In this document: piece by piece, positions 1,677 through 60,503 of the stretch
Layout: every line of letters starts with the position of its first letter
Numbering within the stretch: the stretch's first letter is position 1
IMG/VR virus record: IMGVR_UViG_3300033802_000281
Length of the DNA: 64,000 bases
Origin: a virus
Reading direction: 5' to 3' (one strand)
Program-made: the position numbers and the translations under genes
The notes under the pieces: generated by a model
Database searches by the model: none
What the model was told of the DNA's origin: nothing
What the model saw: the letters and a program-made list of their open reading frames with translations, nothing else

Positions 1677-1757
1677 CAGCAGCGCGGGAAACTTTCACAG
1701 TCTCCCATAACAGCCGATAAAAACAGTATTTTATTAGAATATCAGGAGGTAAACGAT

Positions 1758-1973
1758 ATGCCGAGCGATTATGTCATGAATCGGATTATCAAAGGAGCAG
1801 TAGTTAAAACAACGGATGAATACGAATCACGGTGTAATTCGCTTTTTGGTAAGTGTAAGCCTATTGCAAAAGCAGTTATAACAGACATTGATCCATTTTC
1901 CCAAGTGGCAACATTAAAACTTCCAAGCGGCAAAATACGTACAATAAATGCTTTTTGGTTACAACTTGCATAA
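1758..1973 (+). CDS. hypothetical phage protein
   Basis: ORF; SD AGGAGGT. Confidence 0.7.
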   Translation: MPSDYVMNRIIKGAVVKTTDEYESRCNSLFGKCKPIAKAVITDIDPFSQVATLKLPSGKIRTINAFWLQLA

Positions 1974-2054
1974 TAGAATGATCATGAAAACCGACTTTGA
2001 TTGCTATTTTTCTATGTTATAATACTCTATCAATAACAGAAAGGATGATTAACA

Positions 2055-2363
2055 ATGGCAGAATTCCAAGGCTTAGAGGAAGCACGTTTGCAATTTAATA
2101 ATTGGCATGGTAAAGCAACAATATTTGTAGACTTTGACGATAACGAGGTATTTTGTGAAGTCGGCGTCAATGTTCCTCACTCATTTTCCAAAGAAAGCGT
2201 CATAACAATTTGTAAAAAAGGTGACATGAGCAATCCCAACATGAAATTTAGTGCTGAACGGTTAACAGCGCTGATAAATGCAAAACACAAGATGTATAGC
2301 AGTGGTGAGTATGAGAATTGGCAAATTAATGATGATTATCTGTTTGGTGAGTACTTGCGTTAA
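2055..2363 (+). CDS. hypothetical phage protein
   Basis: ORF; SD AAAGGA. Confidence 0.7.
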   Translation: MAEFQGLEEARLQFNNWHGKATIFVDFDDNEVFCEVGVNVPHSFSKESVITICKKGDMSNPNMKFSAERLTALINAKHKMYSSGEYENWQINDDYLFGEYLR

Positions 2364-2536
2364 TAATAGTCGATAACAGCACAAGCGGAGCCGATCCGCT
2401 TACAAAGGTACACAAAATGAAAGCCTATGGCTAATGTTTTAAGCCCTCAAACAAGTAAAAAATACATAACAGGGGGTTAAGAATGTATGCAACAGTTTAC
2501 AGCATCGAGGGAAAAGCAATGGGAAACCCATCTACT

Positions 2537-2953
2537 GAAAGGAGCGAATCCAAGTGAGTGAATTTGACTTTCTGCCACTTTCGGAACAGGAAATGAGTAG
2601 CACAGATAGCATTTTGAAAAAACTGACGGAAGATTTGAAGGTTGCTAACCAATTGGCATCAAAAGCAATCGAGGGAATGAACGATGGTGGATCGGCAAAC
2701 CTTGATTGCGTGTTTTTGAGAGTACCGCGAATCCGGGAAAGCAAAGTCCTTGAAGCGATCAGAAACGCCGGTTTGTACTGTCGAAGGAAAACGAAATGGA
2801 TCGGACAAGGATACATGATCAGACCGACAGGAACGGGGCAAGGCGATACAAACTATGTGGCTGTACGGACGATGACGGCATATCTCAGGGATCGCGAATG
2901 GGACGTGCTGACGTTCGAAAAAGTGGATTGAGAAAGGAGCGAATCCAAGTGAG
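2537..2953 (+). repeat. 22-bp direct repeat GAAAGGAGCGAATCCAAGTGAG (RBS + start) at 2537-2558 and 2932-2953
   Basis: identical copies read directly, flanking CDS 2554-2931. Confidence 0.9.
2554..2931 (+). CDS. hypothetical protein in GC-richer block
   Basis: GTG start with SD GAAAGGAG. Confidence 0.75.
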   Translation: MSEFDFLPLSEQEMSSTDSILKKLTEDLKVANQLASKAIEGMNDGGSANLDCVFLRVPRIRESKVLEAIRNAGLYCRRKTKWIGQGYMIRPTGTGQGDTNYVAVRTMTAYLRDREWDVLTFEKVD

Positions 2954-3563
2954 CGAGTATGTACGGAAACAGGCGCTTGTGCAAGAAATTAGCGGAAAAA
3001 TTGATTGGTTGATCGGACAAAGCGAAGTTCGGTCGTGTGGACACGAAAATAAGGCCCGCGAATTTTCAAAGGTTATTAGTGAATTTGCGTCTTTAAGGGG
3101 AAGAATCCAATCCGGCGCATTTGACGCTCCTGACGGCGAAGTCCAACGTCTGCGGGCGGCGGCAATAAAATTACATGAAACCCTGAATACCTACTGGCAG
3201 GGCGATTGTGAAAAAGCGGATGTGGTTGCGGTGCAGTCAAAGTTGTGTGATGTTCTCTCCACCACAACCGAACCAACCGACCCTTACACCATCCGCCGCG
3301 ACGAATACGGTCATGCCGTCGCCATCGAGCGAAACGGATATACGGTTCTGCATCTCCAGCCCGGAACTGAGCGGAATGAGCAGGAAGTGGAGGGAATCGT
3401 GGCGTTGCTGAACATGAATGCGGCGAAGGTGGAACGGGTGAAGATAAACTATTGCATAGAATGCGACTCCAATACTTCAAATAATGATTTCTGTTCTGTT
3501 TGCGGAAGTAAGCATATCATTCCCGGCATCAACGCGCCGGAGAAGGAGGGGCAGACGGAATGA
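2949..3563 (+). CDS. hypothetical protein with C-terminal CxxC...CxxC zinc ribbon
   Basis: part of track ORF 2796-3563; GTG 2949 follows the repeated RBS. Confidence 0.7.
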   Translation: MSEYVRKQALVQEISGKIDWLIGQSEVRSCGHENKAREFSKVISEFASLRGRIQSGAFDAPDGEVQRLRAAAIKLHETLNTYWQGDCEKADVVAVQSKLCDVLSTTTEPTDPYTIRRDEYGHAVAIERNGYTVLHLQPGTERNEQEVEGIVALLNMNAAKVERVKINYCIECDSNTSNNDFCSVCGSKHIIPGINAPEKEGQTE

Positions 3564-3733
3564 AACTTACCAAGGCTGTTGAATTGATGGAGAAATACGC
3601 CAAATGCCAAGAATGCGGAAGCGAAATGATCGGCGATGGTGCGGGTACGTTGGAAGTCAACGAAGATGTGTTCCGGCGCACTTGCAAATGCGGTTGGAGC
3701 ATTGAAGTGAAAGGAGACGAGAACGATGCGTGA
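3560..3733 (+). CDS. DUF3797-like small zinc-ribbon protein (57 aa)
   Basis: translated by hand: MKLTKAVELMEKYAKCQECGSEMIGDGAGTLEVNEDVFRRTCKCGWSIEV...; SD AAGGAGG. Confidence 0.65.
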   Translation: MKLTKAVELMEKYAKCQECGSEMIGDGAGTLEVNEDVFRRTCKCGWSIEVKGDENDA

Positions 3734-58335: not shown

Positions 58336-58372
58336 ATGAGACTTTTATTTGTAATTTATGTGGTGATGAAAA

Positions 58373-58696
58373 ATGTATAATTTAGACGAAATTGTTAAGT
58401 TTATTGAAAAGAAAAATAATATAAAACTTTTTGAATATCAAAAGAAAATGTTGCAATACATAATTGAAGGTAAAACGTTTTTTGTCCCTAGACATTCGGG
58501 TAGATCAACAGTAGTAAAAGGTTTTGTTGATTATATTAATGAAGTTCATGGGAAACATATTACTCATGGAATGGATGAACATATTGGTATATCAGAAGTA
58601 ATAAGTGAGAATAGTGAGATTATGAATAGATACTTTTTAAATGATGAACCAGAATTTAAATTTTTATGTGAATTTGAATGTGAATGGGTTAAGTAA
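58373..58696 (+). CDS. hypothetical protein (helicase/terminase N-terminal-like fragment)
   Basis: LFEYQKKML...PRHSGRST. Confidence 0.5.
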   Translation: MYNLDEIVKFIEKKNNIKLFEYQKKMLQYIIEGKTFFVPRHSGRSTVVKGFVDYINEVHGKHITHGMDEHIGISEVISENSEIMNRYFLNDEPEFKFLCEFECEWVK

Positions 58697-58749
58697 TCAA
58701 ACAAAATTAAAAAATAATTTAAAATTGTAATTTTATTAGGAAAGAAGGT

Positions 58750-59655
58750 TTGAATATTATGGAGGTAAATAAAATATATAATACAGATTGTATAGAAGGA
58801 ATGAAATCTTTAGATCCAAATTCAATTGCTTGTTGTATAACTGATCCTCCTTATAATTATGAATTTGTCGGTAAGGATTGGAACATTGAAGAAATTAAAA
58901 GAAGAACTAAAAGAGTTAAAAATTCTAATACACTTGTTAAAAATATACCTTATGGTAGTGGATTATCAGGAGGTATTAGAAATAAAAGATGGTATGAAAA
59001 GAATAGAGAGAATATTTTAAATTACGAAAAATGGGTTGAAAAATGGGGCGATGAATTATTTCGGATATTAAAACCCGGTGGTTTTGTATTTGTTTTTAAT
59101 AGTACAAGAACTATCGCACATGTCCAAGTAGCTCTCGAAAATGTGGGATTTTATGCAAGAGATATTATAGTATGGATGAGAAATAGTGGAATACCAAAGG
59201 GATTAAATATGACTGTAAAATTAAAAAAAATGGGAGTTGAAAATCCTGAACAATGGAAAGGTTGGCATAGTGCTTTAAGGAATGAATGGGAAGCAATATG
59301 TGTCTTACAAAAACCATTAAAGAATAATTATTATGAAACTATTGTTAATTATAATATTGGTTTATTAAATGTAAAAGATGAATATGGTTTTAAATCAAAT
59401 ATTATTAAAAATATCAAACAAGAAAAGAAAGATGATTTTAACACTCATTGTACCATAAAACCAAAGGAATTAATAAAATACTTGATCAACCTTTCAGTTC
59501 CAAAGCATATTGAAAATATAGTAATTGATCCATTTATGGGTAGTGGTACTTTAGCAGTAGCCTGTAAAGAACTGGGTGTAAATTACATAGGATATGAAAT
59601 TAATAAAGAATATATAGAAATAGCGGAAAAAAGATTAAAAAATGTAATCCGATAA
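58750..59655 (+). CDS. N6/N4 DNA methyltransferase
   Basis: TDPPYN, HCTIKP, IDPFMGSGT. Confidence 0.93.
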   Translation: MNIMEVNKIYNTDCIEGMKSLDPNSIACCITDPPYNYEFVGKDWNIEEIKRRTKRVKNSNTLVKNIPYGSGLSGGIRNKRWYEKNRENILNYEKWVEKWGDELFRILKPGGFVFVFNSTRTIAHVQVALENVGFYARDIIVWMRNSGIPKGLNMTVKLKKMGVENPEQWKGWHSALRNEWEAICVLQKPLKNNYYETIVNYNIGLLNVKDEYGFKSNIIKNIKQEKKDDFNTHCTIKPKELIKYLINLSVPKHIENIVIDPFMGSGTLAVACKELGVNYIGYEINKEYIEIAEKRLKNVIR

Positions 59656-59690
59656 AATGAGAATTTTATTGAATTATGGAGGGTAGTTTA

Positions 59691-60476
59691 TTGAGTAAAG
59701 AATTACTTGGAAGTCTTGAAATAAATCGTATTTATCAAATGGACTGTCTAGAGGGTATGAAACTGATACCAGATAAAAGTATTGACATGATATTATGTGA
59801 TTTGCCTTATGGAACGACTGCTTGTAAATGGGATTATGTAATTCCATTTGCAGCCCTTTGGAAGCAATATGAACGAATAATCAAGGACAATGGGGCGATT
59901 GTTCTTACTGCTTCACAACCATTTACAACAGCATTGATAAACTCAAATATTAATCTCTTTAGGTATTGTTGGTATTGGAACAAAACTTATACTGTTGGAT
60001 TTATGAATGCAAATAAAATGCCTTTACGAAATGTTGAAGAAGTTGCTGTTTTTTATAAAAAGTTACCCACTTACAATCCACAAGGAGTTGTAGAGGTAAA
60101 CAAAAAACGATATAGACGAAAGGATAAAGAAACTACAGTATACAACGATATGGGCCTTAAAGAAGGAGAATATGCGCAGAAATTTACCAATTATCCTACC
60201 CAAGTATTGGTTTTCGGGAAAGAGGGTAAAACAGTTCACCCAACACAAAAACCTGTCGCCTTATTTGAATATCTGATCAAGACATACACAAATGAAGGTG
60301 AAATCGTCTTAGATAATTGTATGGGTTCAGGAACTACTGCGGTAGCAGCATTAAAATGTGGCAGAAGATTTATTGGATTTGAAACAGAATCCAAATACAT
60401 AGAAATTGCAAACATGAGAATTGAAAGTATATATAACGAATTAGACGATGAAAAGTTAATAAATAAAATACAATAA
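59691..60476 (+). CDS. N6/N4 DNA methyltransferase (beta class), paralog 3
   Basis: CDLPYG, HPTQKP, LDNCMGSGTT. Confidence 0.95.
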   Translation: MSKELLGSLEINRIYQMDCLEGMKLIPDKSIDMILCDLPYGTTACKWDYVIPFAALWKQYERIIKDNGAIVLTASQPFTTALINSNINLFRYCWYWNKTYTVGFMNANKMPLRNVEEVAVFYKKLPTYNPQGVVEVNKKRYRRKDKETTVYNDMGLKEGEYAQKFTNYPTQVLVFGKEGKTVHPTQKPVALFEYLIKTYTNEGEIVLDNCMGSGTTAVAALKCGRRFIGFETESKYIEIANMRIESIYNELDDEKLINKIQ

Positions 60477-60503
60477 AATAGGAATTTTATGGAGGGTTCT
60501 AAG

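Follow-up and report, generated by a model that had tools for sequence, protein, structure and literature searches.

The virus record IMGVR_UViG_3300033802_000281 (IMG/VR) carries many copies of a palindromic element, ATRAAA-N6-TTTNAT, at the junctions between its accessory genes, which raises the question of what this element does there. The stretch analysed, hereafter the window, comprises 64,000 nt of a roughly 148-kb genome, and statements on the absence of genes apply to this window. Judged by its sequence, the window is a distant SPbeta-like phage. The original prediction had offered two explanations for the element: an integron-like system for the shuffling of gene cassettes, or binding sites for an integrase-fold repressor, a homolog of the MrpR/SroF family which is encoded in the window (33495..34481, + strand; Pfam PF22822 and PF22823). 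We propose, with about even confidence, that the element (hereafter the dyad) is a protein-bound junction element and a preferred crossover point for gene swapping, clade-wide in the SPbeta/Tsamsa-type siphoviruses. The observations which carry this proposal are the enrichment of the dyad, its strict spacing, its symmetry without covariation, its position inside operons, its restriction to one clade and to prophages, and the coincidence of breakpoints with it in two lineages.

Copy number, spacing and placement of the dyad

Searching the 64-kb window for AT[AG]AAA-N6-TTTNAT gave 49 strand-matches at 29-30 distinct sites, whereas dinucleotide shuffles led to an expectation of 1.84. The core of the element is ATRAAA-N6-TTTYAT, and the best copies reach arms of 9 bp, CCAATAAAA-N6-TTTTATTGG. 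The spacing between the arms is strict: a scan for AT.AAA-Nx-TTT.AT with x running from 0 to 13 yielded 30 sites at x = 6 and 0-3 at each other spacing, with about 2 expected. A symmetric position weight matrix (PWM) was scanned over the window with a background of shuffles that keep the local 60-bp composition. At a threshold of at least 12 bits there were 34 matches against 1.1 expected, and at a threshold of at least 8 bits 52 matches against 9.3 expected. The window therefore contains about 40-45 real copies of the dyad, of which about 30 are exact and 10-15 degenerate. The original prediction had claimed enrichment (at least 25 copies) and a 6-nt spacer of variable sequence, had estimated about one chance copy per window and had proposed a PWM scan against a shuffled background as a check; on each of these points the measurements agree with it, the chance expectation for the exact pattern being 1-2 copies. 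It had also described the stretch between 26 and 44 kb as empty, which is mostly so. The remaining PWM matches in this dyad-poor stretch are weak and lie mostly inside coding sequence, but a single exact copy is present at 28735-28752.

Copies of at least 10 bits form two arrays, neither of which is assigned to a strand. The array of the left accessory arm (1717..23686) lies in a long co-directional early operon, in which there is no strong sigma-A promoter or terminator, and has copies starting at 1717, 1984, 3786, 4061, 6643, 8839, 14704, 16292, 16538, 16723, 16959, 17259, 17722, 18836, 19114, 19868, 20823, 21577, 21772, 22788, and 23669. The array of the right accessory arm (44768..60490) has copies starting at 44768, 49961, 50730, 51194, 51396, 53509, 54087, 54909, 55503, 55803, 56829, 57288, 57477, 59652, and 60473. 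All genes of the window are on the + strand.

Gene junctions account for 41 of the 52 PWM matches of at least 8 bits, as foreseen in the original prediction, which had placed the element between a stop codon and the next ribosome binding site (RBS). In 11 open reading frames (ORFs) the stop codon (TAA or TGA) is located at positions 2-4 of the left arm of the dyad, and the ten ORFs which had been listed beforehand as ending in the left arm all do so at these positions. At the other side, about half of the 121 sites behind the logo described below have a Shine-Dalgarno (SD) sequence that starts 2-4 nt past the right arm. Within the right accessory arm, four of the five N6/N4 methyltransferase genes terminate in a dyad copy. 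Strong sigma-A promoters and intrinsic terminators concentrate in the dyad-free core between 31 and 44 kb. Since the dyad-rich arms are almost without promoters or terminators, the dyads are sites within operons.

A duplex-DNA site in one group of large siphoviruses

The element is a DNA dyad rather than an RNA hairpin. An oriented logo of 121 exact sites from three phages shows half-sites which are symmetric in composition, the arms being identical 9-mers, with a preference for T at position 7 and for A at position 12. The flanks are mirror-symmetric as well, C-rich at positions -2/-1 and G-rich at +20/+21, in genomes in which C makes up only 13% of the bases. No covariation was detected among these sites at the pair 3/16, at five flanking pairs or at three spacer pairs. 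Positions 3 and 16 are paired in 70 of the 121 sites, compared to 71.7 expected, and A-C mismatches are as frequent as A-U pairs. Folding is weak, with a mean minimum free energy of -2.7 kcal/mol; the sites form no stable hairpin, and the logo contains no conserved -35 or -10 element. Symmetric composition without covariation indicates a duplex-DNA site for a symmetric dimer, and the absent covariation together with the weak fold excludes an RNA hairpin or an intrinsic terminator.

A more general role at the RNA level has to be weighed against the same data. In that case a small hairpin, or a site for a translational regulator, in front of the RBS would adjust how each accessory gene is translated or its mRNA processed. 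The short distance from the right arm to the SD sequence in about half of the sites is consistent with such a role, as is the observation that the dyad travels with the downstream gene at 7 of 11 junctions. Both the pairing at 3/16, which does not exceed expectation, and the folding energy argue against it, and AURAAA and UUUYAU do not form one single-stranded word for a symmetric protein. We regard an RNA-level function as very improbable.

The dyad characterizes a single supergroup of large siphoviruses (SPbeta/Tsamsa-type), in which it is conserved, and is a property neither of AT-rich DNA nor of the host chromosome. Phages enriched in the dyad are found for Bacillus, Paenibacillus, Psychrobacillus, Geobacillus, Clostridium, Staphylococcus, Mammaliicoccus, and Alicyclobacillus. 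For deposited phages the reversed pattern was counted as a control. Dyads and control matches numbered 42 and 4 in Perkons, 27 and 1 in Geobacillus E3, 25 and 6 in Clostridium c-st, 14 and 1 in a Staphylococcus SPbeta-like phage, 22 and 1 in Mammaliicoccus phi36, 23 and 2 in Tsamsa, 34 and 1 in FADO, 12 and 0 in KKP_3916, 5 and 1 in Sundance, and 8 and 0 in LIBA6276. These phages carry an MrpR-like gene, with the exception of LIBA6276, which has a DndB/YopQ-like gene only. Five unrelated large AT-rich Bacillota phages were taken as negative controls, and here the corresponding counts were 0 and 1 (SPO1), 0 and 2 (A511), 0 and 0 (0305phi8-36), 3 and 0 (949), and 8 and 2 (K). SPbeta contains 14 exact copies, nearly all intergenic, compared to 1-6 at other spacings.

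In host genomes the copies cluster in prophages. In the Paenibacillus genome G004, about 48 of the 69 copies are concentrated in a ~113-kb part of one contig that surrounds the MrpR gene. Two prophages (~33% G+C, in hosts of ~50%) contain 43 and 55 exact N6 copies, compared to 0-7 at other spacings, and their nucleotide identity to each other and to the window is 65-74%, in a few core genes only. The Paenibacillus SPbeta-like prophages have a G+C content of 32-34% in chromosomes of ~50% (G004, contig C11, 367-480 kb; G005, contig C203, 110-250 kb), an unusually large gap. In the genomes G001 and G003, MrpR is present and dyads are absent. A related-locus search of viral contigs carrying MrpR found none, and no description of the dyad was found in the searchable literature.

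Placement and distribution together bear on the possibility that the dyads are roadblocks comparable to stoperators. A phage repressor or a host protein on the dyads would block elongation in the lysogen, and recombination would be a by-product of short shared sequences. Dimer-type DNA dyads in short gaps inside long promoter-less units would suit this function. So would their near absence from the lysogeny module, whose expression has to continue, and their confinement to the prophage instead of a scatter over the host chromosome. SPbeta phages moreover have a second repressor, SroE/YopQ, and DndB, the prototype of this protein family, binds an 18-bp palindrome (PMC4507180). Nevertheless, we consider roadblocks unlikely. 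Immunity operators normally diversify, whereas the dyad is constant in phages of eight genera; the replication core would also need silencing, yet is without copies; and a symmetric site cannot yield the orientation dependence of the L5 stoperators. DndB-family genes are missing from the dyad-rich phages Tsamsa, FADO, and KKP_3916, and YopQ/SroE was rejected as the binder for this reason.

Breakpoints of gene exchange at the dyad

Breakpoints were compared with a mosaic relative of the window, the metagenomic contig NODE_149, which was walked in three steps and whose MrpR is 80% identical to that of the window. The accessory arms of the relative are 99.7-99.9% identical to those of the window (9176-21789 and 46759-52454), compared to 72-80% for the regulatory and replication core, which spans the lysogeny, tRNA and replication genes (30303-44195). 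Near-identical arms combined with a divergent core indicate that a recent swap involved either the arms or the whole core together with the immunity module. Seven of 17 block ends lie at most 3 bp from a dyad copy that scores 8 bits or more; under a null in which only intergenic positions are considered, the binomial tail of this count is 1.8e-6. The crude gene model overstates the intergenic space; when this space is halved the tail is still about 2e-4. An eighth block end falls in a copy with two mismatches (21073).

The position of the crossover within the dyad varies and can be the left edge, the left arm, the spacer or the right arm. At the dyad 3786..3803 homology to the relative sets in where the spacer meets the right arm (junction 3785). 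At the dyad 4061..4078 a block of 95.9% identity ends in the left arm (junction 4075), and the relative carries two extra small genes here which are bounded by dyads. The left edge of the dyad 8839..8856 is the exact start of a block of 99.4% identity. The degenerate dyad 9176..9193 (9.4 bits), whose counterpart in the relative is a perfect copy, marks the start of a 4.7-kb block of 99.8% identity, at the point where its left arm passes into the spacer. In the relative, 183 bp have been deleted through a TTTAT microhomology, and the dyad 14704..14721 adjoins the right end of this deletion. A 4.15-kb block of 99.9% identity ends in the right arm of the dyad 18836..18853, where identity continues through position 15 and the DNA downstream is unrelated. 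The two-mismatch dyad 21073..21090 contains the start of a 714-bp block of 99.7% identity in its left arm (21076) and also the ends of two contigs from other samples; the block extends to the dyad 21772..21789, where it stops in the spacer or right arm (21789). The best extended dyad, with arms of 9 bp (44766..44789), has been kept in the relative with one spacer change, and both flanks are unrelated.

Ends of contigs fall inside dyads in 3 of 33 cases, plus 2 in a degenerate copy, but these mostly resample the same junctions and are not independent. Variants within the lineage of the relative are identical and provided no additional junctions. The dyad at 56829-56846 contains the start of a contig from another sample (L027), which hints at a further variant diverging there.

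Cultured SPbeta phages show the same coincidence independently. At both SPbeta 95562 and SPbeta 132746, SPbetaL4 is homologous to SPbeta from dyad position 1-2 onwards. For phi3T, the homologous stretch starts with dyad position 1 at SPbeta 83687, and ~9 nt to the left of the dyad at SPbeta 113663. With seven of 17 block ends at dyads in NODE_149 and these four cases among cultured phages, the comparison of breakpoints between related phages, suggested in the original prediction, came out in outline in favour of exchange at the element.

Other differences between the window and its relative are independent of the dyad. These include junctions at 4026, 9007, and 46759 and a homologous crossover inside a gene at 7646. 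The latter crossover (7586-7705) is located in a dual-specificity phosphatase (DSPc) gene, just upstream of a tRNA cluster (7828-8067), and the relative has an intact version of 159 amino acids. An in-frame deletion polymorphism of 126 bp (13856-13981) affects a C5 cytosine methyltransferase fused to a helix-turn-helix (HTH) domain, which is 473 amino acids long in the window and 431 in the relative. A TnpB insertion of the IS605 family (47854-49170) is cleanly missing from the relative and is unrelated to the dyads.

Several further sequence features were noted in the left accessory arm. A GC-rich hairpin with flanking words of the ATAACAG type stands immediately before a dyad (1677-1716) and recurs in the relative (locus L019, at about 3670-3717) beside different genes, indicating that junction modules larger than the dyad also move. 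The dyad at 8839 is followed by a non-coding block of ~150 bp rich in AAGTTA repeats (8857-9007). The relative has kept this block (99.4% conserved) with a replaced segment on either side, and the block may be an iteron or promoter region. A direct repeat of 68 bp with 93% identity is present at 14330-14397 and 24964-25031, 10.6 kb apart.

To account for the breakpoints we propose the following course of events. A putative symmetric dimeric protein, other than MrpR, would read the dyad. Crossovers between co-resident relatives would start and finish in the dyad, because the dyad alone is common to otherwise unrelated junctions and is identical across these phages. Whole genes, each with its own ribosome site, would be exchanged in register and the operon would stay unbroken. 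The chemistry of exchange could be short-homology annealing by candidate AAA_24 and Gam functions of the phage, or the action of a dedicated recombinase. Both the binding of a protein to the dyad and the manner of the exchange are inferred. Relaxed annealing recombinases promote mosaicism at short homologies. The AAA_24 protein of the window (40596..41765, + strand; Pfam PF13479) shares the fold of SPbeta YorG, annotated as Sak4-like, and is a candidate single-strand-annealing function for short-homology exchange. A Mu Gam-like protein for the protection of DNA ends (61650..62309, + strand; Pfam listing of the identical locus L023) is, on the basis of this assignment, part of the phage's own recombination toolkit. 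Apart from the MrpR homolog, no recombinase was found in the window by Pfam analysis of its large ORFs and of the called genes of identical loci.

A dedicated recombinase could also act site-specifically, in the manner of integrons, Xer or pdif. A tyrosine recombinase, either of the phage (YopP/YomM type) or of the host, would bind the arms, and strands would be swapped across the 6-bp centre, permitting matching joints only. The 9-bp inverted arms around a 6-bp centre have the layout of a tyrosine-recombinase core site and, as the arms are conserved, most junctions fit exchange at one spacer edge or the other. Genes for YopP-like and YomM-like recombinases occur in one relative, and the copy at 44768 has kept its centre, apart from one spacer change, between flanks that are unrelated on both sides. 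However, the window has no active recombinase and junction 4075 lies outside both spacer edges. Comparison of the 6-bp centres of the window with those of G004, G005, and SPbeta gave 0-2 exact matches, which is at chance level (null means 0.2-0.8), and ordered conserved 6-bp 'barcodes' between distant phages were rejected on this basis. In the close pair, two identical centres were found at swapped positions with unrelated flanks. We judge site-specific exchange to be unlikely. Equally doubtful is its fullest form, in which the dyads would be the core sites of a phage-borne exchange of gene cassettes, run by a symmetric recombinase conserved across the SPbeta/Tsamsa-type phages, with centres that permit matching joints only. 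If true, this would be a viral counterpart of integrons and pdif modules, and it would explain the huge and fluid accessory arms. Of the integron-like shuffling put forward in the original prediction, the part concerning recombination at gene junctions is borne out by the breakpoints. The integron machinery is not, given the missing recombinase, the simple dyads of 18-24 bp, the crossover position which is not fixed and the spacers which are not conserved between distant phages.

Several points weigh against the dyad as a preferred crossover point. Most SPbeta junctions are without a dyad, and the dyad is therefore not required for mosaicism. In a genome-wide comparison of SPbeta and phi3T, which is a weak test, 3 of 50 ends of high-scoring segment pairs were near dyads, two of which look coincidental. 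Part of the coincidence between breakpoints and dyads could be due to selection rather than mechanism, because viable recombinants need breakpoints between genes and dyads fill much of the short gaps. Selection for evolvability alone is moreover a weak reason for strict conservation, which suggests that a primary regulatory or architectural function may exist. Finally, no binder emerged from the candidates compared, as the profiles of DndB/YopQ-like proteins, HU-like proteins and YonO do not track the dyad.

Candidate binding proteins and resemblance to known systems

The second explanation in the original prediction, that the dyads are sites for the integrase-fold repressor, is contradicted by the sequence of the known MrpR element SPBRE, by published binding data and by the promoter-less location of the dyads. 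SPBRE, as found in ten MrpR-bound SPbeta promoters, is a different and asymmetric sequence located between -35 and -10. Chromatin affinity purification sequencing (ChAP-seq) in SPbeta showed MrpR at the ten SPBRE promoters only (PMC10516654), although SPbeta has 14 exact dyads. SroF/MrpR reads a box of 24-26 bp as a monomer (bioRxiv 10.1101/2025.11.27.690993). A scan of the window for the inverted-repeat core of SPBRE gave nothing above chance. MrpR was ruled out as the dyad binder on the basis of the SPBRE sequence, its promoter position and the binding data, and the homolog in the window is probably not the dyad binder either. An MrpR-family gene was detected in each of the dyad-rich phages tested (10 of 10) and in no negative control (0 of 5), which would fit a role as operator, but this co-occurrence is confounded by shared ancestry and G001 and G003 have MrpR without dyads. 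We find it hardly credible that the dyads are MrpR/SroF operators. The MrpR homologs in dyad phages of eight genera are 26-36% identical to that of the window, and YopQ-like and MrpR are the only proteins which the window shares with G004, G005, and SPbeta.

A separate box of the window fits the role of SPBRE better. This promoter-associated box (31414..31430, + strand), recognized from a repeat family and a promoter scan, overlies the -35 of strong sigma-A-like promoters, among them that of the HTH, YopQ-like and MrpR genes. A second copy is present at 9920-9936 and a third, which deviates at 3 positions, at 34537-34553. The box, which is distinct from the dyad, may serve this phage as an SPBRE-type operator. 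Two other proteins were rejected as binders. The HU-like protein YonN is present in control phages which lack the dyad and is missing from dyad-rich phi36. For the YonO RNA polymerase no conservation could be detected, and there is no dyad upstream of yonK, in the yonK-yonN gap with the mapped YonO start site.

The YopQ/SroE-like protein of the window, a member of the DndB family (32151..33473, + strand; Pfam), is encoded together with an HTH gene upstream of the MrpR homolog. The window (~32% G+C) further encodes many DNA methyltransferases, the TnpB element, and six tRNAs. It has no close relative among deposited phages, and its relatives are Paenibacillus prophages.

SPbeta is a model temperate phage, and the large, fast-changing arms of its relatives hold genes for defence, counter-defence, methylases, and toxins. 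One conserved joint of 18-24 bp would be a testable handle on how such accessory arms are assembled, and SPbeta, with 14 exact copies and full genetics, is suited to tests of this joint. The dyad also provides a simple metagenomic signature for this supergroup of phages and for the boundaries of their cassettes.

The dyad is akin to junction repeats which channel gene exchange in other systems, yet it fails defining features of each system compared. Integrons consist of promoterless co-oriented cassettes with a palindromic site at the 3' end, all of which is found in the arms of the window. The attC sites of integrons, however, are structured single-strand substrates of 57-141 bp with paired R and L boxes, unlike the simple dyad of 18-24 bp, and no IntI-type recombinase was found among the window genes by Pfam analysis. 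In the pdif modules of Acinetobacter plasmids, genes are likewise bounded by short sites with inverted arms around a 6-bp centre. The arms of dif and pdif are distinct XerC and XerD arms within a 28-bp site, whereas those of the dyad are identical. The dyad presumably does not resemble the dif site of Bacillus, and no Xer-type or IntI-type enzyme is linked to it. SPBRE is a dispersed repeated DNA element of the same phage family, and its reader MrpR has a homolog in the window. It is asymmetric, ~24 bp long, located in about ten sigma-A promoters and read by a monomer, whereas the dyad is symmetric, intra-operon and 3-5 times more numerous.

The L5 gp71 stoperators of cluster A mycobacteriophages resemble the dyad in that tens of copies occupy short intra-operon gaps of a temperate phage and often overlap stop codons. 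Stoperators are protein-binding DNA sites, as the dyad probably is. They are 13 bp long, asymmetric and orientation-dependent, and they co-vary with the immunity repressor, whereas the dyad is symmetric and invariant across genera. In the PeSL (promoter-early stem-loop) cassettes of T4-type phages, short non-coding repeats stand at the junctions of small accessory early genes, and swaps and indels between relatives occur at these repeats, resulting in modular shuffling. PeSL elements measure ~50-70 bp and contain an early promoter and a stem-loop, whereas the dyad, at 18-24 bp, has neither a promoter nor a stable hairpin and occurs in phages of many host genera. The closest likeness to the dyad is thus PeSL in function, the L5 stoperators in position, and the tyrosine-recombinase core sites, as in pdif, in layout.

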